From Parcubacteria group bacterium (GTDB lineage Bacteria > Patescibacteriota > Minisyncoccia > Phycocordibacterales > Phycocordibacteraceae): DNA of 64,000 bases. The notes below the pieces were generated by a model. It had not been told where the DNA came from. It searched no databases and saw only the letters and a program-made list of their open reading frames with translations. Every line of letters starts with the position of its first letter. Within the stretch, counting starts at the first letter, position 1. This document shows positions 3,962-54,209 of this stretch, one piece after another. The stretch spans positions 7,444 through 71,443 of the forward strand of contig JAQBRL010000020.1 of assembly GCA_028286525.1 (NCBI GenBank), given 5' to 3'. The position numbers were made by a program, and so were the translations under genes.

Positions 3962-3995
3962 AATTCGATCGAGTCGAGAGAAAAGATATATACAA

Positions 3996-4024: not shown

Positions 4025-4036
4025 TATACTTCCTGC

Positions 4037-7974: not shown

Positions 7975-8810
7975 TGCCAGTAGAGATAGTTAAAACCGAC
8001 GGAACCACCGAAGCGTTCGATGGCATGAAGCTCGAGTGGTCGCTCCGTCGCGCAGGCGCAACGACGCATACCGCCGAGCGCATCCGGCACACCATCGAAG
8101 CTTCCATTTCGGCCGGTGCGCCCACGCAAGAGATATACAAGCGCGCGTTCCAGATGCTTCGCCATGACGCGCGGCCTGCCGCCGCGCGCTACAGCCTGCG
8201 GCGGGCCTTATTCGAGTTCGGCCCTTCGGGCCATCCGTTCGAGAATTACGTTTCCGAACTTTTCAAGAAAGAAGGATGGTCCGTGGAATATCGCCGCGTC
8301 ATTCCCGGTAAATGCGTATCGCACGAAGTCGACGTGTACGCGACCCGCAATGGGGAATACCTTGCGGCGGAACTCAAATATCATAATGACCCCGGGTACA
8401 AGACCGACGTGAAGACAGCCCTGTACGTGAAAGCTCGCTTCGACGATATCTGGCAATGCGATCCCAAACATGATGAGCACTGTCCGGTCGATCACGGATT
8501 CCTGATAACCAATACGAAATTCACGCGCGATGCGGTGCAGTTCGCCACCTGCTCCGGTATCCAGCTCCTGGGGTGGAGCTACCCCGCAGAGGGAAGCCTC
8601 TATGACCGCATAGTCGCGACCGGTCTCTATCCGGTGACGGCGCTCACCATGCTCAAGAAGACCGAAAAGAGATTGCTTATCGACCAAGGCATCGTTACCT
8701 GCGACCAGGTACGCGAGAACCGCGACGTGCTCCGCGCGCTCAATATCGCTCCGGAACGCATCGGTACTATACTCGCCGAGGCCAACACCCTTTGTAACTC
8801 CTACGCATAA
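7974..8810 (+). CDS. ATP-cone domain fused to an Mrr/PD-(D/E)xK restriction-endonuclease-like domain
   Basis: The N-terminus is ATP-cone-like (VEIVKTDGTTEAFDGMKL...). The middle region has the HEVDVY...ELKYH catalytic signature. Confidence 0.65.
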   Translation: MPVEIVKTDGTTEAFDGMKLEWSLRRAGATTHTAERIRHTIEASISAGAPTQEIYKRAFQMLRHDARPAAARYSLRRALFEFGPSGHPFENYVSELFKKEGWSVEYRRVIPGKCVSHEVDVYATRNGEYLAAELKYHNDPGYKTDVKTALYVKARFDDIWQCDPKHDEHCPVDHGFLITNTKFTRDAVQFATCSGIQLLGWSYPAEGSLYDRIVATGLYPVTALTMLKKTEKRLLIDQGIVTCDQVRENRDVLRALNIAPERIGTILAEANTLCNSYA

Positions 8811-8815
8811 ACGAT

Positions 8816-9601
8816 ATGGCCGACTTCAAGAAGCAGTACAATCCGAATCGGAACGCCGACTGGAACTATGGCGGCCCGAAATGGCGTCTTTCGCGCTCCA
8901 AGATCGAGCTATTCAACGAGTGCCCGCGCTGCTTCTACCTCGATAACAAGCTAGGGACCGCGCGTCCGCGCGGCCCCGCCTTCACTCTCAATATCGCGGT
9001 CGATACGCTCTTCAAGAAGGAATTCGACGCCCACCGGAATGCTGCGACCGCGCATCCGTTGATGACCAAGTACGGTATCGATGCCGTACCATTCGCGCAC
9101 GCGAAGATGGATACGTGGCGAGAGAATTTCGAAGGGGTCGATTACTTCCATGAGCCGACCGGCTTCACCATTTCAGGCGCCGTAGACGATATCTGGGTGA
9201 ATCCTAAAGGCGAGCTCATCGTAGTCGACTACAAGGCGACCTCGAAGGACGGCACCATCACCACGCTCGAGGATTCTTCCTGGAACGAGCAGTACAAGCG
9301 CCAGATGGGGGTGTATCAGTGGCTCCTGCGCAACAATGGATTCGCGGTCTCTTCCACCGGCTACTTCGTATATGCGAACGCACGCTCCGATAAAAAGGCA
9401 TTCGATGGAACGCTCGAATTCGAAGTCACCGTAGTGCCGAGCGAAGGCGACACGAACTGGATAGATGACGTTCTACCCAAGATAAAGGAGACGCTCGATA
9501 GCCAATCCATTCCTCCTTCTGGAAAGGCGTGCGAATACTGCCCGTACCGCGAGGCAGCAGGGAAGAAGCTGCAGGCGATCCACAAAGCAGCGAAGCGGTA
9601 G
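8816..9601 (+). CDS. Cas4/RecB-like PD-(D/E)xK nuclease with four Cys (putative Fe-S cluster)
   Basis: Motifs read as VDDIW, VVDYK and QYKRQMGVYQWLL (QxxxY). Cys pairs are CPRCF at the N-terminus and CEYCPY at the C-terminus. Confidence 0.6.
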   Translation: MADFKKQYNPNRNADWNYGGPKWRLSRSKIELFNECPRCFYLDNKLGTARPRGPAFTLNIAVDTLFKKEFDAHRNAATAHPLMTKYGIDAVPFAHAKMDTWRENFEGVDYFHEPTGFTISGAVDDIWVNPKGELIVVDYKATSKDGTITTLEDSSWNEQYKRQMGVYQWLLRNNGFAVSSTGYFVYANARSDKKAFDGTLEFEVTVVPSEGDTNWIDDVLPKIKETLDSQSIPPSGKACEYCPYREAAGKKLQAIHKAAKR

Positions 9602-9606
9602 GGAAT

Positions 9607-10275
9607 ATGGAAGTCGCGATCGAGCCATCCTGGAAGAAGCATCTGGCGGCTGAATTCGAGAAGCCGTATTTCAAGGAGCTTACCGAGTTCGTTAAAGAGG
9701 AGTACAAAAATACGAAGGTGTATCCGGCTCCGAAGAATATCTTCCGTGCCTTCGAGCTCACGCCGTTCGATACAGTGAAAGTCGTGATTCTCGGACAGGA
9801 TCCATACTTTAATCCGAACCAGGCGCACGGACTGTCGTTTTCGGTCATGGAAGGGGTCCGTAACCCACCTTCGCTGCAGAATATCTTCAAGGAGATCGAA
9901 TCCGATATCGGCGAGAAGCCGAAGAGCGAAAGCGGCGACCTCACGCGATGGGCGACGCAGGGCGTGCTACTTCTGAACGCGACGCTTACGGTGCGCGCGG
10001 GCGCCGCTGGCTCGCACCAATCGCACGGATGGGAAGAGTTCACGGATGCGGTGATACGGACACTCTCGGAGGAACGCGAGCATCTCGTATTCATACTCTG
10101 GGGCAATTACGCTCGTAGCAAGAAAGTCCTCATCGACGCTTCCAAGCATGACATCATCGAGTCGCCGCATCCCTCGCCCTTTTCGGCGCGCAACGGCTTC
10201 TTCGGCTCCAAGCCTTTCAGCAAAGCGAATGCGTATCTGACGGCACATAACGACCTACCGATAGATTGGACCTAA
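9607..10275 (+). CDS. ung: Uracil-DNA glycosylase, family 1
   Basis: The GQDPY, HPSPFS and LLLN motifs are present. Confidence 0.9.
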   Translation: MEVAIEPSWKKHLAAEFEKPYFKELTEFVKEEYKNTKVYPAPKNIFRAFELTPFDTVKVVILGQDPYFNPNQAHGLSFSVMEGVRNPPSLQNIFKEIESDIGEKPKSESGDLTRWATQGVLLLNATLTVRAGAAGSHQSHGWEEFTDAVIRTLSEEREHLVFILWGNYARSKKVLIDASKHDIIESPHPSPFSARNGFFGSKPFSKANAYLTAHNDLPIDWT

Positions 10276-10320
10276 TGCTTCCGTTTTGATTCATATAGTA
10301 AATGCTGATATTTTAGGTAT

Positions 10321-11631
10321 ATGGCTCGCGCATCCGTAAAAAAACAACCGGCCTTCGTCGGCATCACTTTCGTCCGTGAACGGGACGGAATACGTGAGTA
10401 TAAGCTGGAGAAGAACGGCCTCACCATCCTCCTTGCTGAAAATCATGCCGTTCCGGTAGTCGGCTTCATGGTGACTTATCACGTAGGCTCCCGGAACGAA
10501 GCCATAGGCTATACGGGCGCCACGCATCTCCTTGAGCACCTTATGTTCAAGGGTTCGGAGCGATTCAATGCAGATACCGGAAAGGATACTAAGCAATTCC
10601 TCGAATCGCGCGGCGCGTATATAAACGCGACCACATGGTGGGATCGTACTAATTATTTCGAAGTGATGCCGAAACACATCCTGCCGGACGCGATAGCGCT
10701 CGAAGCGGATCGTATGAGGACCGCCCGTATCACCGAGACCGATCGCGAGAGCGAAATGCCCGTCGTACGCAATGAATTCGAACGCGATGAGAATCTTCCC
10801 ATGTCGGCACTCGACAAGCAGATCTGGGCACTTGCCTTCCAGGCGCATCCGTATCATCACAACACTATTGGATGGAAAAGCGACATCGAAGGCGTTTCGA
10901 TCGAGCGTTTGCAACAGTTCTATAACGACTTCTATTGGCCGGATAACGCTACGGTCTCGGTCGCTGGTGATTTCGATGCGGATGAGACCCTCACGCTGAT
11001 TAAGAAGGAATTCGGCCGGCATTCTCGGAATCCAAGTGAGTACCCGCGGGTCTATACCGAGGAGCCGAAGCAGGAAGGCGAACGTCGCGCGATAGTTTCC
11101 CGTGCTGGAAATAACATGGTGGGCGTCGCGCATAAGATACCGAATGCGCATCACGCGGATATGCCCGCACTCCTCGTGCTCATGGCAGTCCTCGACCAGG
11201 GAAAGACGAGTCGTCTCTACCGCGCGCTTGTCGATACCGCTCTCGCGACCGATGTCGCGGTCGCGTGCTACGAGCTCCATGACCCAGCGCTTTTCATTAC
11301 CTACGCATCACTCACGCCAAGCGCGACTCATGAGGAAGTGGAACGAACTATCGTCAAGGAATACGGAATTCTCAAGGAGAAAATGGTTTCGGCGGCCGAG
11401 CTCGCACGCGCGAAACGCCTTCTGCGCACCGAGCTCGCAAAGCGGTGGGATGGCCCGTATCAGTTCCTTTCGTCGCTTAATGAGAGCATCGCTACAGGAG
11501 ACTGGACGCATTTCCTTACCGCGGGCGAAGCGGTGATGCAGGTTACCTCGGCTGATGTGAGACGTGTAGCGAGCACCTATTTGATTTCAGACCAGGCGAC
11601 CGTCGGGCATTTCGTGAATATTGCACCATGA
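10321..11631 (+). CDS. M16 (pitrilysin) family zinc peptidase
   Basis: An HxxEH zinc motif (HLLEHLMFKG) is present. Confidence 0.85.
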   Translation: MARASVKKQPAFVGITFVRERDGIREYKLEKNGLTILLAENHAVPVVGFMVTYHVGSRNEAIGYTGATHLLEHLMFKGSERFNADTGKDTKQFLESRGAYINATTWWDRTNYFEVMPKHILPDAIALEADRMRTARITETDRESEMPVVRNEFERDENLPMSALDKQIWALAFQAHPYHHNTIGWKSDIEGVSIERLQQFYNDFYWPDNATVSVAGDFDADETLTLIKKEFGRHSRNPSEYPRVYTEEPKQEGERRAIVSRAGNNMVGVAHKIPNAHHADMPALLVLMAVLDQGKTSRLYRALVDTALATDVAVACYELHDPALFITYASLTPSATHEEVERTIVKEYGILKEKMVSAAELARAKRLLRTELAKRWDGPYQFLSSLNESIATGDWTHFLTAGEAVMQVTSADVRRVASTYLISDQATVGHFVNIAP

Positions 11632-12899
11632 ATATGAATCGCATCGCTGACCGTATCCTAGAAAAGCAATTCGACGGAGCACGCATCTTCGCAGCGCGCA
11701 CGGGTGTGAAGGATCTCGTCTACATCGAGGGAAGCGTTCATGGAGGATGGAACATGCTTCCGCGCAGGCAGGGCGAGCTCTCCGTACTCGCCGCGGAGCT
11801 ACTCGATGCAGGCACCAAAGGGAAGTCGAAGGACCAAATCCGTGAATCACTCGCGAGCCGTGGTGCGTCGCTGTCGTTCTCATCGGGCGATGAGCGTACC
11901 TATTTCCGCGGCTCCTGCCTTCCAGAAGACATTTCACGCCTTATATCCGTACTCGTGGAGTGTTTGGGCGAGGCATCGTTCCCTCTCGGCGAGGTTAAGA
12001 CGGCGAAGAATCGCATCCATGGCGAGCTCGTCGAGGAGCGAAACGATACACGCGTACAGGCGGCTATCGCGCTCTCACGCCTCATGTACGACCCGAAGCA
12101 TCATAATTACGAAGAGACGACCAACGAGCGCATCGCGGATCTAAAGAAGACAGAACGACCAGGACTCATCGCATTCAAGAAGATGCTTGGATACGGCGGC
12201 CTCGTACTCGCAATAGTCGGCGATATTGATGCCGAGGCAGCACTCATTCTTGCCGAGAAGGCCTTCAAGAAACTCCCAGGCGGGACGAAGGAAGCGCCCT
12301 CTAAGACTCCTAATACCCGCGCGCAGGAAGGGCAGATAACCCTCGTACCTATAACGGACAAAGCGAATATCGATGTATTCATCGGTGCTTCGATTCCTCT
12401 CACGTATAACGATCCTCTCTATCTCCCGTTCATCCTCTTGACCGAGATGCTCGGCGGGCGCGGCTTCACGAGCCATCTCATGGCAACCGTGCGTGAACGT
12501 GACGGACTCACCTACGGGGTCAACTCACGGCCGACCGGCTTCACGGGGGGCGCCGACGGCGCGTTCCAGGTCTGGGCGACGTTCTCGCCAGCAAAATACG
12601 ATGAGAGCGTTGCCGTGCTGCGAAAGGAAATAGATTTCTTCTTCAAGAACGGCATTACGGAGATGGCGCTTGCCGCACGTAAGGAGGAAATGACCGGACT
12701 CTATGCAGTCGGGCTTTCGACTTCGCGCGGGCTTGCGGCAACTCTCCATCAGATAGGTCGCAGGCATCGCGATCTCTCTTACATAGATGATTACCTGACC
12801 CTTCTCCAGGCCGTAACGCTCGATGAGCTTCATAAGGCGGCATCGCTCATTCCCCTCAAGAACCTTTCGCTTGCAGCAGCAGGCACCTTTACAGGTTAG
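11628..12899 (+). CDS. M16 family peptidase, second subunit (probably non-catalytic)
   Basis: It has M16-like architecture without a clear HxxEH motif, and shares a 4-nt ATGA overlap with the upstream M16 gene. Confidence 0.75.
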   Translation: MNMNRIADRILEKQFDGARIFAARTGVKDLVYIEGSVHGGWNMLPRRQGELSVLAAELLDAGTKGKSKDQIRESLASRGASLSFSSGDERTYFRGSCLPEDISRLISVLVECLGEASFPLGEVKTAKNRIHGELVEERNDTRVQAAIALSRLMYDPKHHNYEETTNERIADLKKTERPGLIAFKKMLGYGGLVLAIVGDIDAEAALILAEKAFKKLPGGTKEAPSKTPNTRAQEGQITLVPITDKANIDVFIGASIPLTYNDPLYLPFILLTEMLGGRGFTSHLMATVRERDGLTYGVNSRPTGFTGGADGAFQVWATFSPAKYDESVAVLRKEIDFFFKNGITEMALAARKEEMTGLYAVGLSTSRGLAATLHQIGRRHRDLSYIDDYLTLLQAVTLDELHKAASLIPLKNLSLAAAGTFTG

Positions 12900-13230: not shown

Positions 13231-15213
13231 ATGACCGTTTCAGAAGTACGCACACGTTACCTCGCCTTCTTTGCGGCGCGTGGTCACGTCATAATCCCAT
13301 CAGCACCGATAGTGCCGGGGAACGACCCTACCACGCTCTTTACCTCGTCCGGCATGCAGCCCCTTATTCCGTACCTGCTCGGTAAGGACCACCCGGAAGG
13401 GAAGCGCATCGTTAATTCCCAGATGAGCTTTCGGGCGGGCGATATCGAGGAAGTGGGCGACAATCGCCACACGACGTTCTTCGAGATGCTCGGCAATTGG
13501 TCGCTCGGCGACTATTTCAAGAAAGAGCAGCTACCCTGGTTCTTCGAGTTCATGACGAGCAAAGAAGAAGGCTTAGGACTCGATCCTACGAAACTCTTCG
13601 TCACGGTATTTGCGGGCGACCCCGATACGGGCATGGAGATGGATACCGAAGCCGTGGGCATATGGCAAGAACTCTTCAAGACCAAAGGCATCGATGCCGA
13701 ATTCGCGGATATCGGCAGCGAAGCAGCCGGCTACGAGCACGGCATTAATGGTAACGAACGCATATTCGCTTACGACGCCAAGAAGAACTGGTGGAGCCGC
13801 TCGGGCGTACCTGCCAACATGCCTGCCGGAGAGCCAGGTGGACCGGATTCCGAGGTCTTCTACGACTTCGGTCTTCCGCACGACCCAAAGTGGGGCCCGA
13901 AATGCCATCCGAACTGCGACTGCGGCCGTTTCGTCGAGATAGGGAACTCGGTCTTCATGCAGTTCATAAAGAATGCTGACGGGTCATTCTCGAATCTTCC
14001 GAAGCAGAACGTGGACTTTGGAGGCGGGCTTGAGCGTCTTGCGTTCGCTACGCTCGATAAACCTGACGTTTTTCTCATAGATGTATTTGATACAGCTCGG
14101 AACGCGATTGAATATCTATCCGGAAAAATATATGGGTCAGATGAAAAAATAACAAAGTCTTTCCGCATCATTTTGGATCACATGAGAGCATCCACCTTCA
14201 TCCTTGCTGAAGGTATAGTTCCCGCAAGCACGGAGGCTGGTTATGTCCTTAGGCGTTTGTTGCGTCGCGCAATTCGTGAGACCGATAGATTGGGAGTCAA
14301 GGACAAAGTTCTTGCATCTGTAGCTGAAGAGTTTGCTGACAAATATGCAGACCAGTATCCACGCTTGCAGGAAAATAAGCTCAAGATTTTGGATGAAATT
14401 GCAAAGGAAGAGGAGCAGTTCAGGAGAACACTCGAAACGGGTTTGAAGCAATTCGAGAAGGCAATCAGCATTAAGTCAGGCATTGTTAGCAATGCCGATC
14501 AACGCAAGGAACTTGAAGAACGAGTCTACATTAAGACTCTGGGAGCAGAAACGGTTTTCGAGTTGATGACAACCTATGGCTTCCCAGAAGAACTCATTCG
14601 AGAAGAACTAGCTTCGCACAATATCTCAGTTGATGATTGGGATATGGTCAAAAGCTTGTTCGAAAAACATCGCGAGCTTTCCCGCGCCGGAGGCGCGCAG
14701 AAATTCGCCGGAGGCCTTGCCGACCACTCCGAGCAGACCGTGCGCTACCACACGACGCATCACATCCTACTCAAAGCGCTCCAGATGGTGCTCGGGGACG
14801 AGGTCAAGCAGCGGGGAAGCAATATCACGAGCGAGCGCTTGCGCATCGACTTCTCCTCCCCCGGCAAGATGACTCCAGAGCAGAAAGAAGAGGTAGAGAG
14901 GATAGTGAACGAAATTATCTACCAGGACCTGCCGGTATCGCGCACCGTCATGCCACGGGAAGAGGCCGAGAAGCTCGGTGCCCAGATGGAATTCGGGGTG
15001 AAGTATCCCGACATGGTATCGGTGTATTCGGTCGGTCCTATCCATGCAACAGAGGAGAATCCCGATATTCCGAACGCATTCTCGCTGGAGTTCTGCGGCG
15101 GACCGCATGTGAAGAGCACAAAGGATATCCATGACGGCGGCAAGCGTTTCAAGATACAGAAAGAGGAGGCAGTCGCTGCAGGCATCCGCCGCATCAAGGC
15201 AGTGCTCGAATAA
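13231..15213 (+). CDS. alaS: Alanyl-tRNA synthetase, short form (catalytic, tRNA-recognition and editing domains; no C-Ala domain)
   Basis: Class II AlaRS N-terminal motifs are present. The editing-domain HTTHHILLKALQ and CGGPHV signatures are also present. The protein is 660 aa. Confidence 0.95.
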   Translation: MTVSEVRTRYLAFFAARGHVIIPSAPIVPGNDPTTLFTSSGMQPLIPYLLGKDHPEGKRIVNSQMSFRAGDIEEVGDNRHTTFFEMLGNWSLGDYFKKEQLPWFFEFMTSKEEGLGLDPTKLFVTVFAGDPDTGMEMDTEAVGIWQELFKTKGIDAEFADIGSEAAGYEHGINGNERIFAYDAKKNWWSRSGVPANMPAGEPGGPDSEVFYDFGLPHDPKWGPKCHPNCDCGRFVEIGNSVFMQFIKNADGSFSNLPKQNVDFGGGLERLAFATLDKPDVFLIDVFDTARNAIEYLSGKIYGSDEKITKSFRIILDHMRASTFILAEGIVPASTEAGYVLRRLLRRAIRETDRLGVKDKVLASVAEEFADKYADQYPRLQENKLKILDEIAKEEEQFRRTLETGLKQFEKAISIKSGIVSNADQRKELEERVYIKTLGAETVFELMTTYGFPEELIREELASHNISVDDWDMVKSLFEKHRELSRAGGAQKFAGGLADHSEQTVRYHTTHHILLKALQMVLGDEVKQRGSNITSERLRIDFSSPGKMTPEQKEEVERIVNEIIYQDLPVSRTVMPREEAEKLGAQMEFGVKYPDMVSVYSVGPIHATEENPDIPNAFSLEFCGGPHVKSTKDIHDGGKRFKIQKEEAVAAGIRRIKAVLE

Positions 15214-26204: not shown

Positions 26205-28109
<1,905 letters not shown>

Positions 28110-29240: not shown

Positions 29241-30317
29241 ATGGCCAAGAATTACTACGAAACTCTCGGCATCGACAAGAAAGCGAGCCCGGACGATATA
29301 AAGAAAGCTTTCCGCAAGCTTGCCCAGAAGCATCACCCAGACAAGGGCGGGGACGAGGCGAAGTTCAAGGAAATCACCGAGGCGTACTCGGTGCTCGCTG
29401 ACGAGAAGAAGCGCCGCGAATACGACTCGTACGGGCAGACGTTCGCAGGTGGAGCACCTGGCGGCGGGGGATTCGACCCCTCGCAATTTTCAGGCGGATT
29501 CGGCGGAGGCGTCGAGTTCGATCTGAACGACCTCTTCGAGGGATTCGGCGATATCTTCGGAGGCGCAGCAGCCCGCGGTGGCCGCGGCCGCATGAAGCGC
29601 GGGCGGGATATTTCCGTCGATATAGAGATCTCGTTCAAGGAATCCATTCTCGGCGGCAAACGCTCCGTGCTTATCTCGAAAATAGATAAATGCGAGGTAT
29701 GCCAGGGAAGCGGCGCGAAACCAGGAGCCGAGATGGAAACCTGCAAGACCTGCAATGGAGCAGGCCGCATCCATGAGACCCGGGACTCCGTACTGGGAGC
29801 CTTCACGAGCGTGCGCACCTGTCCGACCTGCGAGGGCACAGGCTCGGTACCGAAAGAGAAGTGCGAGAACTGCACGGGCCATGGCGTTCTCAAGAAGGAG
29901 GTGGAGCTCAATATCGACATTCCGCGCGGCATCGACGGCGGAGAGATGATACGCATGCCGGGCATGGGCGAGGCAATAAAGGGCGGCGTCTCCGGCGACC
30001 TCTACGTCAAAGTGCATGTGAAGCCGCACGCCGTATATCGCAAGGATGGCGCGAACCTCATCATGGAGCTTCCGGTGAAGCTTACGGACGCGCTTGTCGG
30101 TACTACCGTCACTATCACGACCATCGACGAAAAGACGCTTGAGGTGAAAGTGCCTCCGATGGCGAAGACCGAGGAGATACTTCGCATCAAAGGTCGCGGC
30201 GTTCACTATGACCAGGCGACCGGCGACCTCCTCATCCGCGTGACCGTGACGCTCCCGAAGAAGCTCTCGAACAAAGCCAAGAAAGCAATCGAAGACCTCA
30301 AGACCGAAGGACTGTAA
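29241..30317 (+). CDS. dnaJ: Chaperone DnaJ (Hsp40)
   Basis: A J-domain with HPD, a G/F region, four CxxCxGxG zinc-finger repeats and a C-terminal domain are present. Confidence 0.95.
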
Positions 30318-30360: not shown

Positions 30361-32187
30361 ATGCCGCCACAGGATCCTATTAAAAATACGCGGGCATGGC
30401 CCGTGCTGAAAGATTATACGAAAGCGGCGTTACGCTACCCGAACGCGTTCCTCTTCACGCTCGCGACGGTGATCGGCGTCCAGGTAACGGAGATCATCGC
30501 GCCTCTCTTCCTACGGCAATTCATCGATACCGTCTCAGGTCTTTCCACGCAGCACGTCATTACGCCCGCGGTCATACACTCGTTAGTCGGGTATATATGC
30601 ACCATCGCAGCAACGTGGCTGCTCTACCGCCTTCTTACGCTTGGAGAGATGCGCATCGAGTCTCGCGTGCCGGCGGATCTCACGAACAAGGCATTCGGAT
30701 ACCTCATACACCATAATTACGACTTCTTCGTAAATAACTTCGCCGGTACCCTTACGCGGCGCGTAACGCGGTACGCGCGCGCATTCGAACAAGTGTTCGA
30801 CACCGTGATGTCGAACTTCATTCCGACGTTCGTCTATACCATTGGAGTCATTGTGGTGCTGTATACGCGCAATCATGCGCTCGGCATCGGCCTGTTGCTG
30901 TGGACCCTGTTCTTCCTTGCGCTCATCTACTTCATGACGCAATGGAGGTACAAATATAAGCTCATGCGAGCCGCCGAAGACAGCCGTCTTACGGGGGCCC
31001 TTTCGGATTCCATCGGAAACCATACCGCGGTCCTCTTTTTTGCCGCCGAAGCCCATGAAAAGTCGAGGATAGGGCATATCGTGACCGACTGGTTCGATGC
31101 GAACATAAAGGCCTGGTCCGCCGATCTATGGAACTACACCATCCAGGGGTTCCTTACCCGCGTCGCGCAAGTCAGTTTGCTGCTCGCGGGACTCTATCTG
31201 TGGCAGAAAGGCCTTCTCACCGTCGGCGATTTCATACTCATACAGATCTATATGCTCACCCTTATGGACCGCATCGGGAACATAGGGAGCAGCATGCGGC
31301 GTATCTATGACGCATTCGCTGAAGCCAATGAGATGATACATATCTTCGAGCTGCCGCATGCGATCACGGATGATCGCCTTGCGGTATCGCTGATAGTTTC
31401 TGACGGGAAAGTGGAGTTCGGGAACGTGAACTTCTCGTTCATTCCTGAACGGCCTATCCTCAAGGACTTTTCGCTTACGGTGAAAAGCAAGGAGAAAGTG
31501 GCCCTCGTCGGGCCCTCCGGTGCAGGGAAGTCCACCATTACGAAGCTGCTGTTGAGGCTGTACGATCTCAAAGACGGTGCCATCAAGATCGATAACCTGG
31601 ATATCCGTCATGTGACCCAGAAAACGTTACGCGAGTCCATCTCCTTCGTACCGCAGGAGCCCGTGCTGTTCCATCGCACCCTGCACGAGAACATCGCCTA
31701 TGGCAGGCAGGACGCGAGCCTGGAAGAGATCATCGAAGCGGCGAAGAAGGCCCACGCGCATGAATTCATATCGACATTGCCGCTGGGGTACGACACCTTC
31801 GTGGGAGAACGCGGAGTGAAGCTTTCCGGCGGCGAGCGCCAACGCGTCGCTATCGCGCGCGCCATTCTCAAGAATGCCCCTATCCTCGTGCTCGACGAGG
31901 CGACCTCATCCCTCGATTCGGAGAGCGAGCACCTCATCCAAGAGGCGCTCGATACGCTCATGGGAGGGAAGACGGTCATCGTCATCGCTCACCGCCTTTC
32001 GACCATCATGAAGATGGACCGCATCGTCGTGATGGAGCAGGGGAGCATCGTCGCGCAAGGGACCCACGAGGAACTGCTCGCGCAAGCCGGCTTGTATAAG
32101 AAGCTCTGGAGCATCCAGGCAGGCGGTTTCCTTGGCGGGGAGAAAGAAAGCGGCGAAGAGGAGACCGCAACGGAGGAAGGGGAGTGA
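30361..32187 (+). CDS. ABC transporter, fused permease/ATPase exporter (MsbA-like)
   Basis: Six TM helices, Walker A GPSGAGKST, signature LSGGERQR and Walker B ILVLDEATS are present. Confidence 0.9.
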   Translation: MPPQDPIKNTRAWPVLKDYTKAALRYPNAFLFTLATVIGVQVTEIIAPLFLRQFIDTVSGLSTQHVITPAVIHSLVGYICTIAATWLLYRLLTLGEMRIESRVPADLTNKAFGYLIHHNYDFFVNNFAGTLTRRVTRYARAFEQVFDTVMSNFIPTFVYTIGVIVVLYTRNHALGIGLLLWTLFFLALIYFMTQWRYKYKLMRAAEDSRLTGALSDSIGNHTAVLFFAAEAHEKSRIGHIVTDWFDANIKAWSADLWNYTIQGFLTRVAQVSLLLAGLYLWQKGLLTVGDFILIQIYMLTLMDRIGNIGSSMRRIYDAFAEANEMIHIFELPHAITDDRLAVSLIVSDGKVEFGNVNFSFIPERPILKDFSLTVKSKEKVALVGPSGAGKSTITKLLLRLYDLKDGAIKIDNLDIRHVTQKTLRESISFVPQEPVLFHRTLHENIAYGRQDASLEEIIEAAKKAHAHEFISTLPLGYDTFVGERGVKLSGGERQRVAIARAILKNAPILVLDEATSSLDSESEHLIQEALDTLMGGKTVIVIAHRLSTIMKMDRIVVMEQGSIVAQGTHEELLAQAGLYKKLWSIQAGGFLGGEKESGEEETATEEGE

Positions 32188-33072: not shown

Positions 33073-33540
33073 ATGTCCAAAGGCATCGCTTTTGCGGTTC
33101 TCGCGCCGCTATTCTACGCGCTCGCTAACGTGCTGATCGAGTGGAAGCTCGTTCGCTACAACAACCTCAGCTTGATGGTCGTCTACGCGGCCATCATCGC
33201 CGGTGTGGCGTTCGCCATCCGTCTGGCCGCGCGAGGCGCCGATCCGGCGGCCTATGCGTTCCCGGCCGGCATGAACCTCGTCTGGCTCATCGTCCTCGGT
33301 GTCCTGTTCTTCGTCGCCGACTACCTCTACGTCGGCGCATACACGAGCAACGTGAGCCTGCTCACCATCACGACCATCAGCGTCCTGTTCCCGGTGTTCG
33401 CGTCGCTCATCAAGCTGGTGGGCAGCCGCTTCCTCGCCGGCATGACGTTCACGCCCCCTACTCCCACTCTAGTGATCGCGTACGTCCTTGCGGCGACCGC
33501 GGTCATCCTGGTGGTGAAGGAGGGCATGAAGGCGGCCTAA
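33073..33540 (+). CDS. Small multi-TM membrane protein (DMT/EamA-like)
   Basis: Four predicted TM helices are present; family membership is tentative. Confidence 0.45.
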   Translation: MSKGIAFAVLAPLFYALANVLIEWKLVRYNNLSLMVVYAAIIAGVAFAIRLAARGADPAAYAFPAGMNLVWLIVLGVLFFVADYLYVGAYTSNVSLLTITTISVLFPVFASLIKLVGSRFLAGMTFTPPTPTLVIAYVLAATAVILVVKEGMKAA

Positions 33541-33572
33541 CCGCCGCGCTGCTCTCCACAGGGAAACTATCG

Positions 33573-33606
33573 ACGCCCCGGCTGCACTGGCCGGGGCGTT
33601 TCTACA
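33573..33606 (+). terminator. Rho-independent terminator
   Basis: A GC stem (acgccccgg ... ccggggcgt) is followed by TTTCTAC. Confidence 0.6.
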
Positions 33607-33622
33607 GAGAAGGCACTATTTT

Positions 33623-34030
33623 ATGTTATATAATCCACATACTATGAATTTTGGGGAACACCTGACACTCGACGGATATGGAGGCGATTATGAGCTGCTG
33701 AATGATCGCGAATACGTGCGTTCTTGCTTCGATGAACTCTTGGCCCATCTGGAGATGCATCCCCTTATCGAACCGGTGATCATCGAAGCGCCTGACAACC
33801 AGATCAAGGACCCCGGAGGCTGGAGCGGCTACGTGGTCATCGCAGAGAGCCATATCAGCATCCACACATTCCCGAAACGGAAGTTCATTTCAGCCGATGT
33901 ATACACCTGCCGAAACGGTATGGATAGGGAATATATCACTGAATATTTTAGAACGAAGTTCAAACTGACCGATCTCGAGACTAACTTCATCGTGCGCGGC
34001 ACCCGGTATCCCGAGCATAATCTCGTATGA
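33623..34030 (+). CDS. speH: S-adenosylmethionine decarboxylase proenzyme (pyruvoyl-dependent, SpeH type)
   Basis: LTLDGYGGD and the self-cleavage-site motif VVIAESHISIHTFPK are present; the start is possibly at MNFGEHL. Confidence 0.75.
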   Translation: MLYNPHTMNFGEHLTLDGYGGDYELLNDREYVRSCFDELLAHLEMHPLIEPVIIEAPDNQIKDPGGWSGYVVIAESHISIHTFPKRKFISADVYTCRNGMDREYITEYFRTKFKLTDLETNFIVRGTRYPEHNLV

Positions 34031-34635
34031 CAATACAGGCACTGTTTGGGATTGCCGCCGGCATATTATCGTTCGTCGCATACCCTGTCTACATACGAGA
34101 CATTCTCCGCGGTGAAACGAAGCCGAGCAAGGTAACCTGGTGGGTGCTCGCCTTCCTGAATGCTGCCCTTACCGCGAGCTATTATGCGTCAGGCGCTCGG
34201 GATACGATCTGGATTCCTATCAGTTATACCCTGGGATTCTCTGTCGTAGCGTTTCTTTCTCTCAAATACGGAGAGGGAAATTGGGAAAAGAGCGACTGGA
34301 TCTGCCTTACCGGCGCGGCAGTGAGCTTGTTCTTGTGGTGGTTCCTTCAGTCTGCCGAGGTTGCGCTATATCTTATTATAATCACTGATTTCATTGGTCT
34401 CGTCCCCACTATCTATAAGACGTACAAGAGACCCTGGACAGAGAGCAGGCTCTCTTGGTCAATCGCATTGATCGCCAGCGCGCTGAACGTGATCGCGATC
34501 GAGGATTGGTCTCCCGCAATCAGTTTCTATCCGTTCTATGTAGTGATAACGAATGCTCTTATCGTAGGATTTATATTGTTTCCGAGACATCGTGAACAGC
34601 AGATTGTTGAGCCTCGCAGCGATTCCGGCGCATGA
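34027..34635 (+). CDS. Hypothetical polytopic membrane protein
   Basis: Six or more TM helices are present, with 4-nt overlaps to both the upstream and downstream genes. Confidence 0.5.
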   Translation: MTIQALFGIAAGILSFVAYPVYIRDILRGETKPSKVTWWVLAFLNAALTASYYASGARDTIWIPISYTLGFSVVAFLSLKYGEGNWEKSDWICLTGAAVSLFLWWFLQSAEVALYLIIITDFIGLVPTIYKTYKRPWTESRLSWSIALIASALNVIAIEDWSPAISFYPFYVVITNALIVGFILFPRHREQQIVEPRSDSGA

Positions 34636-35573
34636 TTCCACAATTCCCCGACTTCAAGCAGCTTGAGTTTTCGGACAAAGACGAATTGGAGACATTCGCC
34701 GCTGGATTTTCGCCCTACTCCGATTTTGAATTCGCCAGCTTGTGGGCTTGGAACGTTCAAGAGAACATGGAACTGTCTCTACTACGAAAAAATCTAGTTG
34801 TGCGCTTCACAGATTACGTTACAGGCGCATTTTTTTATACTTTTCTTGGCAAAACCGAACTGAACGATACTGCTGAAGAGCTTATCGCCCTTTCTGAGAA
34901 AAAAGGCTATGGTTCCGTCTTACATCTGATACCAGAGGAGGCTATTACCGGACTTGATACCGACAGATTCGATATTACGGAATCACGTGACCATTTCGAT
35001 TATCTGTACGAAGTGGAGCAGCACGTAACGTATGGCGGCGGGAAGCTCAAATCAAGGCGCAATTTTTTGAATGGCTTCCTGAAGACCTATCCGCATTACG
35101 GTGCCGTACCTCTTGATCTTTCTGACGAGCTCACCCGGCGCGAAGTGCTCGAACTCTGTCGTAGATGGGAAGAGAATAAGGGATTTCCGATCCCTAATGA
35201 GCAGCGGGCTCTGAGCCGTTTTCTCGATGTTGCGCACTTTTTCACGTATAGCGCAGTCGGTATTACGATCGACAGCACGTTGGTAGGCTTCTGCACGACC
35301 GTGTTGCTCCGCGATGGGCGCGCAAACGCGCTTTTCGAAAAAGTAGATATCCGCTATCACGGTATCCATGCGCTGCTTCGGCATGAAGTGGCCAAGAACC
35401 TTATACGCGCGCGCTATACGCATCTTAATTATGAACAGGATCTTGGGATACTCTCTCTTCGCCAGTCGAAGACAGCCTTTAACCCGACCGGCTTCTTGAA
35501 GAAATATAGCGTTTCTCGCAAACGCACGGATGCGTTCGCTTCACAGACTCAACTTCCAGCTGAATTCGACTAG
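34632..35573 (+). CDS. DUF2156 / MprF C-terminal-like (aminoacyl-tRNA-dependent transferase fold) protein
   Basis: Its length and blocks (DFEFASLWAW, GYGSVLHLIPEEA) resemble the LPG-synthase C-terminal domain; the assignment is moderate. Confidence 0.45.
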   Translation: MIPQFPDFKQLEFSDKDELETFAAGFSPYSDFEFASLWAWNVQENMELSLLRKNLVVRFTDYVTGAFFYTFLGKTELNDTAEELIALSEKKGYGSVLHLIPEEAITGLDTDRFDITESRDHFDYLYEVEQHVTYGGGKLKSRRNFLNGFLKTYPHYGAVPLDLSDELTRREVLELCRRWEENKGFPIPNEQRALSRFLDVAHFFTYSAVGITIDSTLVGFCTTVLLRDGRANALFEKVDIRYHGIHALLRHEVAKNLIRARYTHLNYEQDLGILSLRQSKTAFNPTGFLKKYSVSRKRTDAFASQTQLPAEFD

Positions 35574-35630
35574 TGGAGAAGAGTCCTGGACGTTTATTCG
35601 GTTGGTATACTTACATACGAAGCTTGAACA

Positions 35631-35990
35631 ATGCACCGCTCTGCCCATAAAACTACATTCCTCATATGTGTCGGCATATTGGTGTTGATCGTCGCGATAC
35701 ATAATTTCGCTCGCTACTATGTGGCGAAAGATTATCCGTTCCATGTATTTACGAGCTGCGCTCCCTTCATGCACAGCTGCTTTACTGCTGACCCGACCAA
35801 CTCAGATCCGACATTCCAGGGCGGCGCATACGAAAAGGTCATGATCGACGCCGCACATGCACCGATATGCTTAGAGGAGCATACGTGCGCAAATTTCTCT
35901 TGCGATGGGCTCGGCGCACTATGCCAGGTGACGTATTGTTCGCCGGACGCTCTGGAAGATGGCGAAAGCTGCACTAGTTCAACTCAATAG
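35631..35990 (+). CDS. Small Cys-rich secreted or anchored protein
   Basis: An N-terminal TM or signal segment is followed by 9 Cys in about 80 residues. Confidence 0.4.
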   Translation: MHRSAHKTTFLICVGILVLIVAIHNFARYYVAKDYPFHVFTSCAPFMHSCFTADPTNSDPTFQGGAYEKVMIDAAHAPICLEEHTCANFSCDGLGALCQVTYCSPDALEDGESCTSSTQ

Positions 35991-35992
35991 CT

Positions 35993-37639
35993 ATGCTGGC
36001 ATATTTTATACACGCCCAATACTGCTACGAATATCTGGTAAATCAGATCCCGATGGGCCTGCTGCTGTATTCGCACCTACCGACATCGCTTCTTGCCCTC
36101 GCATTCGGGACATATGTGCTCTTCAAGGCACGTACACTTCCAGCCTTTCTCTTCTTCAATGTCTGTCTCATGTTCGCTATCTGGGCAGCATTCGATTTGA
36201 GCGCTTGGTTCGCGTTCCTCGGAGCCGATAATGTCATGTTCACCTGGTCTCTCCTCGATTTCTTTGCGGTACTCATGTTCTTTTTTACGTACTACTTCCT
36301 GTACACGTTCGTGACTGGTAAAGATCTACCGCTCTGGCAGAAACTCATCGGCATCGCTATTCTATTGCCCACAACGGTTATCGCGTTCATGGGAGTGAAC
36401 ATACCGACATACGACCTCAATTCCTGCACCGCGCTTGAGGACAACGCCTACACCATCTACACGTACATTGCCGAAGGGATATACATCCTGGTCACGATAG
36501 CGTTCCTCACTATCGAGTACCTGAAGAAGAAGGAGCGTACGCAACGACGTCGTACTCTCCTCGCCGGTACTGGAGTCCTGATATTCCTCGGGTTCTTCTT
36601 CTCAGCGAGTTTTCTGGTCAGTCTATACGCGAGCAGCGATGCATCTTCATACGTATACAACTATTTGATCTATGGATTATTTGGGATGCCGGTATTTCTC
36701 ATCTATCTTGGGTATCTAATCGTCAGATACCACGCATTCAATCTTAAGACATTCGGGGTACAGGCTCTTGTCGTGGCACTCATTGCAGTCCTCGCTTCTG
36801 AGTTTGCGTTCGTGACTACCCTTACGAGCCGCGTCCTTGTCGCCGTCACGCTTATCCTTACCGGCATTATCGGGACCCAGCTTATCCGGAGCGTTAAACG
36901 TGAAATAGAGCAGCGTGAGCATATAGAAAAACTTGCAGGAGATCTTGAGAAGGCGAATGAGCAGCAAATAGTCCTCATTCATTTCATTACGCACCAGATC
37001 AAAGGCTTCGTAACCAAGTCGCGCAATATCTTCTCGATGGTGCTCGAGGGAGATTTCGGATCAGTGCCAGAGCAAATGAAACCCATGCTCGAAGAGGGAT
37101 TCAGTTCGGACACCAAGGGCATGAACACGATTCAAGAGATTTTGAACGCAGCGAATATAAAAAGCGGGAAGGTCACGTATGCGATGGCGCCATTCGACAT
37201 GAAACTATTCATCGAGGAGATAGCGAAGGAACTCAAGCCTGCTGCCGATGCGAAAGGCCTCGAATTTACGCTTGACCTGGGCATGGGTACCGACGTCGTG
37301 ACAGGAGACCGGGGGCAGCTCGTGAATGTGTTCAAGAACCTCATCGACAACTCCATAAAATACACGCAGAAGGGCACGGTCACGGTACGCCTGAAAAAAG
37401 AAACCGGTAAGGTCATTTTCACGATCGAAGACACGGGTGTCGGGATCACGCCAGAGGATATGAAGAACCTATTCACGGAAGGAGGACACGGGAAGGAATC
37501 CACGAAGGTGAACGTGGAGTCCACTGGTTTCGGTCTCTACATCGTGAAGAACATCATCGATGCCCATAAGGGCAAGGTCTGGGCCGAGTCCGAAGGCGCA
37601 GGGAAGGGGAGCCGCTTCATCGTCGAGCTTCCCGCATAG
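35993..37639 (+). CDS. Sensor histidine kinase with multi-TM N-terminal sensor domain (orphan)
   Basis: About 7 TM helices are followed by an H-box (HFITHQIKG) and HATPase_c N/G1/G2 boxes (NLIDNSIKYT, EDTGVGI, GFGLYIV). Confidence 0.85.
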   Translation: MLAYFIHAQYCYEYLVNQIPMGLLLYSHLPTSLLALAFGTYVLFKARTLPAFLFFNVCLMFAIWAAFDLSAWFAFLGADNVMFTWSLLDFFAVLMFFFTYYFLYTFVTGKDLPLWQKLIGIAILLPTTVIAFMGVNIPTYDLNSCTALEDNAYTIYTYIAEGIYILVTIAFLTIEYLKKKERTQRRRTLLAGTGVLIFLGFFFSASFLVSLYASSDASSYVYNYLIYGLFGMPVFLIYLGYLIVRYHAFNLKTFGVQALVVALIAVLASEFAFVTTLTSRVLVAVTLILTGIIGTQLIRSVKREIEQREHIEKLAGDLEKANEQQIVLIHFITHQIKGFVTKSRNIFSMVLEGDFGSVPEQMKPMLEEGFSSDTKGMNTIQEILNAANIKSGKVTYAMAPFDMKLFIEEIAKELKPAADAKGLEFTLDLGMGTDVVTGDRGQLVNVFKNLIDNSIKYTQKGTVTVRLKKETGKVIFTIEDTGVGITPEDMKNLFTEGGHGKESTKVNVESTGFGLYIVKNIIDAHKGKVWAESEGAGKGSRFIVELPA

Positions 37640-38892: not shown

Positions 38893-39501
38893 ATGGAAAC
38901 CGAATGGGAAGCGACGTTCTGGCCCATCGATAAGGAAAACGTTCGTGCTCGACTTAAAACCGCTGGCGCGTCCCTTATCTTTCCGGAGCGGCGCATGCGA
39001 CGTGTAAATCTATATCCGCCCGACGAAGAGTACGCTCTTCGAGCATGGGTGCGCGTACGGGACGAAGGGGACCGAATCACCCTGAGCCTGAAGGAACGAC
39101 GAGGAGATAATTCGCAGATCGAACACCAAGGCGAGATCGAACTTATCATTGATGATTTCGACCGCGCAGGAGAACTCTTGCGGCACCTGGGATGCCGGGA
39201 TAAGAATTATCAGGAGACCAACCGTGAACTATGGAAATTGCATGGTGCATCGATAACCATCGACGAATGGCCCTGGCTTGAGCCATTGATCGAGATCGAA
39301 GGTATTTCGGAGGAGCATGTGAAAGATGTGAGCACCAGGCTCGGTTTCGATTGGAATGAAGCACGTTTCGATACTGCCGATAAGATCTACGCTCAGAAGT
39401 ATGGTGTCGAGTCTCAGTTCGTAAATCGCAGTATTCCGCGGCTTATCTTCGAGGGAGATAATCCGTTCCAAAATCAAGGCCAAGCTGATATAGTGGCCTA
39501 G
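38893..39501 (+). CDS. CYTH-domain protein (triphosphate tunnel metalloenzyme family)
   Basis: ExExK-like acidic residues lie near the N-terminus (METEWEATF) and the size is about 200 aa. Confidence 0.6.
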   Translation: METEWEATFWPIDKENVRARLKTAGASLIFPERRMRRVNLYPPDEEYALRAWVRVRDEGDRITLSLKERRGDNSQIEHQGEIELIIDDFDRAGELLRHLGCRDKNYQETNRELWKLHGASITIDEWPWLEPLIEIEGISEEHVKDVSTRLGFDWNEARFDTADKIYAQKYGVESQFVNRSIPRLIFEGDNPFQNQGQADIVA

Positions 39502-39505
39502 TTGC

Positions 39506-39588
39506 GCGTCGGTGGTAGAGTGGTCAATTACAACAGGCTGTAAACCTGTCGGCTTCGGCCTACGAAGGTTCGAATCCTTCCCGGCGCA
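39506..39588 (+). tRNA. tRNA-Tyr (anticodon GTA), type II with long variable arm
   Basis: Hand-folded: acceptor GCGTCGG/CCGGCGC; D-arm GTAG...TTAC; anticodon stem ACAGG/CCTGT with loop CTGTAAA; variable arm CGGCTTCGGCCTACG; T-arm GAAGG-TTCGAAT-CCTTC; discriminator A. CCA is not encoded. Confidence 0.8.
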
Positions 39589-39593
39589 CACGG

Positions 39594-53765: not shown

Positions 53766-54209
53766 ATGAGTAAGAAAAAAATATGGCTACCTATAGTAAT
53801 CCTACTGATCATTATAGTTGGTCTGGTAATTGCAATGAATAGGAATAATGCGATATCGGAGCCAGCTTATACAAATGAGACCAATGGTTCTGTCAGTTCT
53901 TCAAATTCATCAACGTCATATGCCCCTACCCCTATTGATCGTTCAAAACTTCTTAGCGGCAAATTTACCGAGAATCGATCTCCGGACGGTAAGTTCATCT
54001 CACACACCTTTGATAATGAACAAGGTGATTCTGGGGTATATCTAAGCACCAGCAGCGGCACTGACGTTAGTGCAACGTACTGTGGCTACTTTAAAGAATG
54101 GTCGCCTGATAGCAAAAAAATAACCGTATTTGTCCCTGAAGAGTGCGGTAAGGGTGTGCCACAGAATGAGACCTTTGAGCTACATGTCGATGGCACTATA
54201 AGTAAGTAA
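53766..54209 (+). CDS. Hypothetical signal-anchored protein (low-GC patch)
   Basis: An N-terminal TM helix is present and GC is much lower than the window average. Confidence 0.4.
   Translation: MSKKKIWLPIVILLIIIVGLVIAMNRNNAISEPAYTNETNGSVSSSNSSTSYAPTPIDRSKLLSGKFTENRSPDGKFISHTFDNEQGDSGVYLSTSSGTDVSATYCGYFKEWSPDSKKITVFVPEECGKGVPQNETFELHVDGTISK

Follow-up and report, generated by a model that had tools for sequence, protein, structure and literature searches.

The window (the whole stretch of 64,000 nucleotides analysed here) carries a conserved five-gene module of a reduced-genome Parcubacteria lineage within the candidate phyla radiation. Its genes encode a SpeD-like decarboxylase, a seven-helix membrane protein (TM7), a free-standing DUF2156 enzyme, a cysteine-rich membrane-anchored protein (CysR) and a sensor histidine kinase (HK) (Table 1). 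Both the membrane protein and the 313-aa open reading frame (ORF) described in the initial annotation are present where it placed them, and so are the neighbours it named: a protein of the AdoMet_dc family, a 119-aa protein rich in cysteine and a histidine kinase of 548 aa. The ATGA overlap that it noted between the genes for the membrane protein and the enzyme is present at position 34632, where the enzyme's ATG and the TGA stop codon before it form a 4-nt overlap (read as gcATGAtt); a second 4-nt overlap, at 34027–34030, joins the stop codon of the speD-like gene to the start of the TM7 gene.

Table 1 Features of the locus, in window coordinates.
Feature	Coordinates	Strand	Remarks
155-aa five-helix DMT/EamA-like membrane protein	33073..33540	+	ORF; GC 0.626, outside the low-GC block
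GC-rich hairpin followed by UUUCU	33572..33600	+	12-bp stem, -25.1 kcal/mol, z -4.3 versus shuffles
SpeD/AdoMetDC-family pyruvoyl-dependent decarboxylase proenzyme	33623..34030	+	PF02675, 86.9 bits
TM7, 202 aa, 7 TM helices, predicted PQ-loop/SWEET/KDEL-receptor 3+1+3 fold	34027..34635	+	AF2 model
Free-standing DUF2156/LPG_synthase_C tandem-GNAT protein, 313 aa, cytoplasmic	34632..35573	+	PF09924
CysR, 119 aa, N-terminal TM anchor and ~90-aa ectodomain	35631..35990	+	8 conserved cysteines
Sensor histidine kinase, 548 aa, multi-TM N-terminal half of ~300 aa	35993..37639	+	HATPase_c, 94.5 bits

The five genes (33623–37639) have a GC content of 0.486–0.513 and a GC3 of 0.52–0.64, ranking second to sixth lowest among the window's 59 ORF-level genes (mean GC 0.574, s.d. 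0.041). The GC dip noted earlier for 33.6–37.6 kb is real, at ~7–9 GC points rather than the 10 first reported. A hairpin marks the 5′ edge of this low-GC module and is likely the terminator of the upstream gene; a simple terminator scan missed it because of its short T-run. Consensus scans for promoters and terminators gave chance-level hits only, and an Rfam scan of 32–38 kb returned no match.

The 313-aa product had been likened to the catalytic domain of aminoacyl-lipid synthases, and a hidden Markov model search detected the expected DUF2156 fold: the PF09924 model (LPG_synthase_C) matches with 57.1 bits (cut-off 27.5; E = 1.9e-15) over profile positions 9–297 of 298, and is carried by 120/120 homologues among the matches listed. 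As annotated, the enzyme stands alone, with no TM segment and no flippase domain, and it contains two GNAT domains in tandem. In DUF2156 transferases, a positively charged helix between these domains, alpha(+), binds the tRNA acceptor arm (PMC8913301); such a helix is found here at residues 137–152. Across 56 sequences, Lys or Arg occupies position 138 in 31, position 140 in 36, position 142 in 37, position 143 in 54 and position 151 in 40, and acidic residues are nearly absent at the core positions 139–149. We propose that the protein is an aminoacyl-tRNA-dependent aminoacyl transferase.

Only the Pfam model and structural comparison reveal the relationship of this enzyme to the MprF synthase domain. 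Searched against the PDB, a profile of the 56 clade members matched 2hqy alone, with no MprF chain even at E values up to 10, and no NCBIfam MprF model matches either the enzyme or TM7. Structurally, the enzyme is almost equally distant from MprF and from the amine-acylating Fem/Sbb17 proteins, and it has no FemAB Pfam match. A contig search with the single enzyme protein yielded only three distant non-Parcubacteria loci (24–28% identity), in uninformative gene contexts unrelated to the module (DUF362/ferredoxin, rubrerythrin, DctM, EPSP synthase, thymidylate kinase).

The membrane partner, initially read as a 6-TM protein, has seven TM helices in its AF2 model (pLDDT 91). Structure comparison of this model indicates a 3+1+3 fold of the cystinosin/KDEL-receptor/SWEET (PQ-loop) type, with relatives including cystinosin (7zk1), KDELR (8apy), AtSWEET13 (5xpd) and SemiSWEETs, and the predicted topology has the N-terminus outside and the C-terminus inside. 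Unlike the PQ-loop/SWEET superfamily, TM7 has no detectable half-repeat (hhalign of the two halves, probability 0.6%), and Pfam models of the MtN3-like clan matched 0/51 TM7 homologues at E values up to 5; TM7 itself matches no Pfam or NCBIfam model. The proteins are bacterial and full-length, and are fused to or paired with cytoplasmic enzymes. The family comprises 4,879 clusters at 50% identity, with fusions elsewhere to methyltransferases, to a STAS domain and, in one TM7 protein, to a degenerate ArgRS-like domain. A 2018 survey listed only about 20 bacterial 7-TM PQ-loop/SWEET members by sequence (PMC5972207). Solved PQ-loop relatives transport cystine, and Lys/Arg are carried by family members. 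Two invariant prolines, P33 and P136, lie in the loops after TM1 and TM5 of TM7, an observation that is suggestive only.

The SpeD-like protein scores just below the cut-off of TIGR03330 (75.3 versus 75.65 bits). It conserves the self-cleavage Ser (in ESH) together with the His and Cys residues, and has HTFPK where solved AdoMetDCs have HTWPE. Its start may be Met8, because homologues align only from residue 10. In other loci its position is occupied by PvlArgDC, and ornithine decarboxylase activity has been demonstrated for SpeD homologues of candidate-phyla-radiation bacteria (PMC10407285); the substrate may be SAM, arginine or ornithine.

At the other end of the module, an alignment of 14 homologues of CysR has eight conserved Cys columns; a homologue search retrieved 4 proteins only, because the protein evolves fast. 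CysR lies 3′ of the DUF2156 gene in 9/38 loci and is fused to the C-terminus of the enzyme in P0024, a fusion to be treated with caution because it was seen on a single 2.5-kb contig. Neither CysR nor M275 (a 275-aa membrane protein found in other loci), S95 or c13 belongs to a significant Pfam or NCBIfam family. NCBIfam HK models align to kinase residues ~250–547, mostly 300–547, and full-length orthologues of the kinase in L004–L008 are 48–53% identical to it. A tblastn search with CheY found no receiver domain in the window, leaving the kinase without a cognate response regulator nearby. An hhalign comparison of M275 with the N-terminal membrane half of the kinase detected no homology (probability 2.5%), and the two module types therefore do not differ by a simple reshuffling of domains.

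Module composition was surveyed over 76 non-identical metagenomic loci, with denominators that differ between parts (for example 38, 43 and 62). The order is pyruvoyl decarboxylase, TM7 or EamA, DUF2156, an extracytoplasmic partner (CysR, or M275 plus S95) and histidine kinase. The kinase, which lies within 3.5 kb 3′ of the DUF2156 gene in 33/38 loci (87%), is its most constant partner, and CysR or M275 occurs in 82% of loci. A polyamine gene (pyruvoyl decarboxylase) accompanies the enzyme in ~42%. TM7 or EamA flanks the enzyme in 29/43 loci (67%), never both together, and TM7 is directly 5′ of it in 17/62; about a third of loci have the enzyme without any adjacent transporter. TM7 and DUF2156 also occur as natural single-chain fusions (P0013, P0016, P0019, P0028) in the MprF order, with the membrane part N-terminal and the enzyme C-terminal; P0019 is present on 15 contigs at one syntenic site. 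Given the predicted N-out/C-in topology, the fused enzyme would therefore lie in the cytoplasm, where aminoacyl-tRNA is. A planctomycete metagenome-assembled genome (MAG) carries such a fusion on its own, at 60–62% identity, without polyamine genes. Literature searches on DUF2156, on the candidate phyla radiation with MprF, and on aminoacyl-tRNA with polyamines found no description of the module.

We tentatively favour, at somewhat less than even confidence, a reading in which the enzyme and TM7 form a two-gene analogue of MprF that uses aminoacyl-tRNA to aminoacylate a membrane lipid, TM7 being the putative anchor and translocator. The enzyme would take an amino acid, probably cationic (Lys or Arg), from aminoacyl-tRNA and esterify the hydroxyl of an inner-leaflet lipid that may be scavenged from the host. 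TM7 would hold the enzyme at the membrane and transfer the head group, once aminoacylated, to the outer leaflet, a role that the EamA/DMT protein would take in other genomes; the mutual exclusion of TM7 and EamA points to transport partners that can replace each other, and not simply to an anchor. The kinase and ectodomain protein would sense or tune the state of the envelope. The same control would extend to the decarboxylase, whose polyamine product would serve as a second protectant, cationic and acid-consuming. There is a precedent for adapting a solute-transporter fold to lipid head groups, because the MprF flippase has been classed as a distant relative of the solute-transporter superfamily MFS (PMC7778945).

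MprF is the closest known system (B. licheniformis L-PGS, 4v36; R. tropici LpiA, 6lv0/6lvf; P. aeruginosa MprF, 9j8q). Its N-terminal flippase of ~14 TM helices (COG0392/UPF0104) is part of the same protein, whereas here a 7-TM PQ-loop/SWEET-fold protein is encoded by a separate gene, and the similarity is too low for profile searches. An aminoacyl-lipid hydrolase gene usually adjoins mprF (PMC7334510), but none adjoins this pair, which counts against a lipid substrate. Among free-standing DUF2156 proteins, the closest known are uncharacterised 2hqy, of Bacteroides thetaiotaomicron, and the fungal ergosteryl-glycine synthase ErgS, which is eukaryotic and sterol-specific; both are without a dedicated membrane partner, decarboxylase or kinase. 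In mycobacterial LysX (NCBIfam NF002821), MprF is fused to LysRS, which joins an aminoacyl-lipid synthase to the synthetase charging its donor. Resembling this arrangement, a LysRS gene lies two genes 5′ of DUF2156 in two divergent lineages (L005-type and L068), and there is the ArgRS-like TM7 fusion; in the window, however, no synthetase is fused or adjacent to the TM7/DUF2156 pair. The LysRS adjacency may be coincidental because the neighbouring gene passes the housekeeping lysS model. With two lineages only and a gene resembling the housekeeping copy, we rejected it as too weak a sign of a lysine donor.

Several observations fit the lipid model poorly and bring in its main rival, which we consider possible though on the unlikely side: N-aminoacylation of a polyamine or other small amine, coupled to transport. 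Here the decarboxylase would produce agmatine or putrescine, the enzyme would join this polyamine through an amide bond to an amino acid taken from aminoacyl-tRNA, in the manner of FemX and Sbb17 with their amine acceptors, and TM7 or EamA would export the conjugate or import the precursor amino acid. The clade's sequence distance from MprF and its nearly equal structural distances to Fem/Sbb17 and to MprF weigh against the lipid model, as does the fact that the PQ-loop fold and the EamA/DMT families are primarily those of small-solute transporters. The TM7 fusions to methyltransferase, STAS and ArgRS-like domains fit a solute transporter equally well or better than a flippase, the polyamine genes are explained only indirectly by lipid aminoacylation, and the transporter-free third of loci is also awkward for it. 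On the other side, no characterised PF09924 member acts on a soluble amine, and polyamine genes are missing in more than half of the loci as well as beside the planctomycete fusion. Nothing obvious would require an enzyme with a soluble substrate to be fused with a membrane protein or a membrane-anchored ectodomain, and our literature search turned up no account of tRNA-dependent aminoacyl-polyamine synthesis. A more specific version appears unlikely to us: tRNA-dependent polyamine conjugation and export, in which Arg or Lys from tRNA would be joined to agmatine or putrescine by N-aminoacylation at the mouth of the PQ-loop-fold/EamA transporter, and the conjugate would be bound or sensed at the surface by CysR and the kinase.

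It is improbable that the protein is instead an acyl-CoA-dependent tandem GNAT, such as a polyamine N-acetyl/N-acyl transferase that detoxifies polyamines or readies them for export, and not an aminoacyl-tRNA enzyme at all. A Fem-like cell-wall enzyme, which would use aminoacyl-tRNA to attach an amino acid to a lipid-linked precursor of peptidoglycan on the inner membrane face, is very improbable: FemX/FemA and Sbb17 are aminoacyl-tRNA-dependent amide-forming transferases, but our enzyme resembles them at the fold level only, lacks their FemAB match and has no cell-wall or antibiotic-biosynthesis gene context, with mur, fts and penicillin-binding-protein genes absent from ~90 neighbourhoods. 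We also know of no PQ-loop- or EamA-fold partner that acts as a Lipid II flippase.

Bacteria of the candidate phyla radiation are generally host-dependent and without lipid biosynthesis of their own. If aminoacyl-tRNA is diverted in these cells to decorate scavenged lipids or polyamines, this bears on how they build and protect their envelope, and the MprF design of synthase plus translocator would have arisen at least twice, with membrane folds that are unrelated. If the polyamine-conjugation reading is true, it would represent a new class of small-molecule chemistry that depends on tRNA, and TM7 would be the first member of a very large and so far unannotated family of bacterial 7-TM SWEET-fold transporters acting together with cytoplasmic amine-modifying enzymes. 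The TM7 family consists of bacterial 7-TM proteins whose SWEET/PQ-loop fold is typical of eukaryotes; current family models miss these proteins, which recur as fusions with cytoplasmic enzymes. The module offers a concrete entry point for assigning the family a function, and 2hqy, an uncharacterised structure, would gain functional context.

The initial annotation called the low-GC stretch consistent with acquired DNA. That the genes form a recently acquired island or are chance neighbours (a decarboxylase and antiporter for pH homeostasis beside an unrelated enzyme) is highly improbable, and is largely refuted because synteny is conserved. No other multi-gene stretch of the window is as low in GC as the block, horizontal transfer reportedly spreads speD-derived decarboxylase genes within the candidate phyla radiation (PMC10407285), an IS200-type transposase directly follows the kinase in one relative (L004), and the planctomycete fusion could also point to transfer. 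Against this, the order of the genes and their site between DnaK/DnaJ/ABC and TyrRS are kept in the window, L005/L015/L016, L007, L021, L083 and L093. Divergence is comparable to that of the flanks (module proteins 48–63% identity; ABC transporter 54.5%, TyrRS 64%), and the relative GC dip recurs across genomes of 40–57% GC. Base composition is deviant, as in an island, but displaced position and mobility features are lacking: no att-like or flanking repeats, integrase or adjacent tRNA were found, the sole tRNA lying 1.9 kb beyond the block. The gene fusions speak against chance adjacency. Of the initial interpretation, the enzyme family, the lack of a flippase domain and the ATGA overlap stand; the six TM helices and a recent-island reading of the block do not.

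Upstream of the hairpin, the 155-aa protein has no Pfam match, and its counterpart in L011 matches EamA weakly. Its homologues (cluster c29) lie directly 5′ of the speD-like gene in four loci (L038, L040, L083, L086), and it is a peripheral transporter, possibly associated with the module.

The TM7–DUF2156 link is real. The 202-aa membrane protein TM7 and the 313-aa DUF2156 enzyme, identical to NCBI JWO84_462 and JWO84_463 in the Parcubacteria-group MAG from which the window derives, are encoded in a compact run of genes in which two ATGA overlaps of 4 nt chain the decarboxylase, TM7 and DUF2156 genes, bearing out the ATGA overlap from which the initial annotation read translational coupling. 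The gap between the genes for the Cys-rich protein (CysR) and the histidine kinase is 2 nt, and the kinase is an orphan here, since the window holds no gene for a receiver domain. In four protein clusters (P0013, P0016, P0019 and P0028), TM7, a short linker and DUF2156 form a single chain; the P0019 fusion, present on 15 contigs, occupies the same site as the split pair of the window (DnaJ ... ABC, AdoMetDC, fusion, 275-aa membrane protein, 93-aa protein, kinase ... TyrRS). DUF2156 is also fused to CysR in one cluster (P0024), seen on a single 2.5-kb contig. Another TM7–DUF2156 fusion (locus L009), 60–62% identical to the window proteins, lies on an 822-kb contig labelled Planctomycetes (MAG GCA_021414025.1) and lacks decarboxylase, CysR and kinase, suggesting that the fused pair can work alone; a Parcubacterium may have exchanged it with a member of another phylum.

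Features of the window and of comparison loci (L numbers)
Locus	Feature	Position	Strand	Remark
Window	660-aa ORF	13231-15213		GC 0.527, also low
Window	DnaK	26205-28109	+	
Window	DnaJ	29241-30317	+	
Window	ABC exporter	30361-32187	+	
Window	Membrane protein, 173 aa		+	Between ABC exporter and DMT-like protein
Window	DMT-like membrane protein, 155 aa	33073-33540	+	
Window	Hairpin	33572-33600		
Window	SpeD/AdoMetDC-family decarboxylase	33623-34030	+	
Window	TM7, 202 aa	34027-34635	+	
Window	DUF2156 protein, 313 aa	34632-35573	+	PF09924
Window	CysR, 119 aa, Cys-rich	35631-35990	+	
Window	Histidine kinase, 548 aa	35993-37639	+	
Window	TyrRS		+	Downstream of kinase
Window	CYTH-domain protein plus the tRNA-Tyr after it	38893-39589	+	CYTH protein between TyrRS and TrpRS, its GC low (0.515)
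Window	tRNA-Tyr	39506-39589	+	Directly after CYTH protein
Window	TrpRS, then non-discriminating AspRS		+	
Window	147-aa ORF	53766-54209		GC 0.417, lowest in window
Window	GC dip, GC3 lower too	33623-37639		
L004	GC dip, GC3 lower too	4589-8071		
L016	GC dip, GC3 lower too	7494-11951		
L021	GC dip, GC3 lower too	5543-7714		
L087	GC dip, GC3 lower too	6946-11000		
L004	IS200-type (Y1_Tnp) transposase	8156-8842		
L009	TM7–DUF2156 fusion	6001-7542		
L010	M275 and S95	6969-8104		
L011	M275 and S95	6976-8103		
L093	M275 and S95	7574-8686		
L040	165-aa multi-TM protein	3990-4487		
L005	LysRS	3013-4476		
L007	LysRS	3011-4474		
L068	LysRS	609-2258		

The AlphaFold model of TM7 (pLDDT 91) has seven TM helices, replacing the six first assigned. 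Two independent structure searches agreed on its fold, the best 14 Foldseek matches all being cystinosin, KDEL-receptor or SWEET (PQ-loop) families (probability 0.92–1.0). TM7 shares this fold with the PQ-loop/SWEET clan but was not recognised by the clan's sequence tests: none of 51 homologues matched a Pfam model, and no sequence repeat was detectable between its two halves. Because 13 Lys/Arg fall in predicted-inside loops and 1 outside, the C-terminus is predicted to be cytoplasmic, which is compatible with a partner enzyme on that side of the membrane. The TM7 family is very large and unannotated: a profile run against 1.84 billion representative proteins returned 4,879 clusters (50% identity) with E-values of 1e-3 or below, 482 of them at 1e-30 or below, and neither Pfam nor NCBIfam has a model that detects them. 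Family members P0172–P0320 are bacterial, of ~190–200 aa, with the seven-TM fold taken from one modelled member. Some members carry C-terminal cytoplasmic fusions, to DUF2156, a PrmA-like methyltransferase, SET domains, another methyltransferase, a STAS domain, TPR repeats or a degenerate ArgRS; the last (P0257), in which the HIGH motif is absent, adjoins MetK in locus L092.

The proposed DUF2156 resemblance of the enzyme held up in an HMM search (PF09924, 57.1 bits against a threshold of 27.5). The only solved structure matched by sequence was 2hqy, an uncharacterised free-standing Bacteroides protein (E 2e-21), and a profile of 56 clade members again found 2hqy alone (E 4e-40), missing every MprF synthase-domain structure. 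Structure comparison also ranked 2hqy first (30.7), followed by L-PGS 4v36 (17.4), LpiA 6lv0 (16.8), FemX 6snr (16.1), PaMprF (15.8), the aminoacyl-tRNA-dependent peptide synthase Sbb17 (15.3), Weissella FemX (14.8), FemA (13.9) and, at 12.2 and below, MshD and other acyl-CoA tandem GNATs. The 2hqy-like branch lies about equally far from lipid O-aminoacylating and amine N-aminoacylating enzymes. Conserved Lys/Arg on helix 137–152, between the GNAT halves (R143 in 54 of 56 sequences), identify it as the alpha(+) helix, a requirement for aminoacyl-tRNA use in this family (PMC8913301). Sequence, fold and helix therefore all assign the protein to a free-standing, 2hqy-like branch of the DUF2156 aminoacyl-tRNA-transferase superfamily. 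The protein does not count as an MprF, since it has no flippase domain, its sequence showed no link to MprF and NCBIfam MprF models gave no match.

We compared 80 loci from JGI metagenomes with others fetched by exact protein look-up, and clustered all ORFs. A tblastn recount over 76 non-identical loci, made without reliance on gene calls, describes a conserved module. TM7 lay directly 5' of DUF2156 in 17 of 62 loci. The enzyme was flanked by TM7 (12) or a 10-TM EamA protein (17) in 29 of 43, never by both, so that these transporter partners are mutually exclusive alternatives. A histidine kinase followed within 3.5 kb in 33 of 38 loci, with CysR (9) or the 275-aa multi-TM protein M275 (22) intervening in 31 of 38, and a pyruvoyl decarboxylase (AdoMetDC-type or PvlArgDC) lay within 4 kb upstream in 14 of 33. 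Even locus L011, whose DUF2156 is just 38% identical to that of the window, preserves the trio of AdoMetDC (65%), TM7 (46%) and DUF2156 intact. In L010, L011, L093 and ~20 other loci, M275 (repeated motif PYPSLGD / DFGYPLGD, extra paralogues often upstream) and the 95-aa soluble protein S95 (motif IIKEQELIIGPLAW; likewise 22 loci) replace CysR, with a shorter, GAF-containing kinase; neither protein matched a family model. More distant loci also carry a PLP-dependent Orn/Arg decarboxylase, an agmatinase-family protein, a deoxyhypusine-synthase-like gene, MetK and PrmA-like, NNMT-like or SET methyltransferases. In L040 and five other loci, a 165-aa multi-TM protein without family match sits between decarboxylase and DUF2156, the usual place of TM7 or EamA, and is possibly a third option for the membrane partner. 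Free-standing DUF2156 relatives outside the Parcubacteria lineage have unrelated neighbours.

In the SpeD homologue of the window, the Ser, His and Cys of self-processing are retained, and translation may in fact begin at Met8 (ATG at 33644). The protein may not be a SAM decarboxylase, since it reads HTFPK against HTWPE in solved AdoMetDCs, scores just under the NCBIfam cut-off, is replaced by PvlArgDC in other genomes and has relatives in the same bacterial group known as ornithine or arginine decarboxylases (PMC10407285).

Our finding concerns architecture, with chemistry that can be put to the test, and demonstrates no new activity; the literature yielded no description of the TM7–DUF2156 pairing, of the module or of the TM7 protein family. 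We tentatively favour an MprF-like model, in which the enzyme would take aminoacyl-tRNA as donor and a membrane lipid as putative acceptor and TM7 would translocate the product, because every characterised PF09924 enzyme acylates membrane lipid (PMC8913301, PMC7334510) and the TM7–DUF2156 fusions repeat the layout of MprF. A solute-transporter superfamily (MFS) is itself counted as distant kin of the MprF flippase (PMC7778945), so it is plausible that a transporter fold recognising cationic amino acids could move lysyl or arginyl head groups. A polyamine acceptor, the main rival and somewhat less likely, would better account for the genes around the pair (decarboxylase, agmatinase, SpeY-like, methyltransferases) and fits the other TM7 fusions as well as the small-solute nature of the two partner families, but has no precedent inside PF09924 and leaves the membrane tethering of the enzyme without a reason. 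An acyl-CoA-dependent GNAT is improbable, a Fem-like cell-wall role slightly more so, and chance adjacency or an island is very hard to credit.

In L005, L007 and L068, from two divergent lineages, the second gene upstream of DUF2156 encodes a LysRS that passes the lysS model for the housekeeping enzyme; this recalls LysX, the mycobacterial MprF–LysRS fusion, and the adjacency may be coincidental.

The reported low-GC stretch (33.6–37.6 kb) is real, the most marked multi-gene dip within the window, and GC drops from 0.63 to 0.49 exactly at a strong hairpin (12 bp, -25.1 kcal/mol, z -4.3) followed by UUUCU. Its reading as acquired DNA fared less well, recent acquisition being opposed by several observations. 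The same housekeeping genes bracket the module in several relatives despite the dip, module proteins (48–63% identical to those of relatives) diverge comparably to the flanking ABC transporter (54.5%) and TyrRS (64%), the module is again 4–9 GC points under its flanks in L004, L007, L016, L021 and L087 (genome GC ~0.40–0.57), and no repeats, integrase or adjacent tRNA were found at the module. The dip could arise if codon bias is weaker here than in the neighbouring chaperone and synthetase genes, which are highly expressed, or if homologous transfer between Parcubacteria has replaced the module repeatedly; speD-derived genes are frequently transferred in the same group (Li et al., PMC10407285). 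In L004, the transposase gene directly follows the module kinase.
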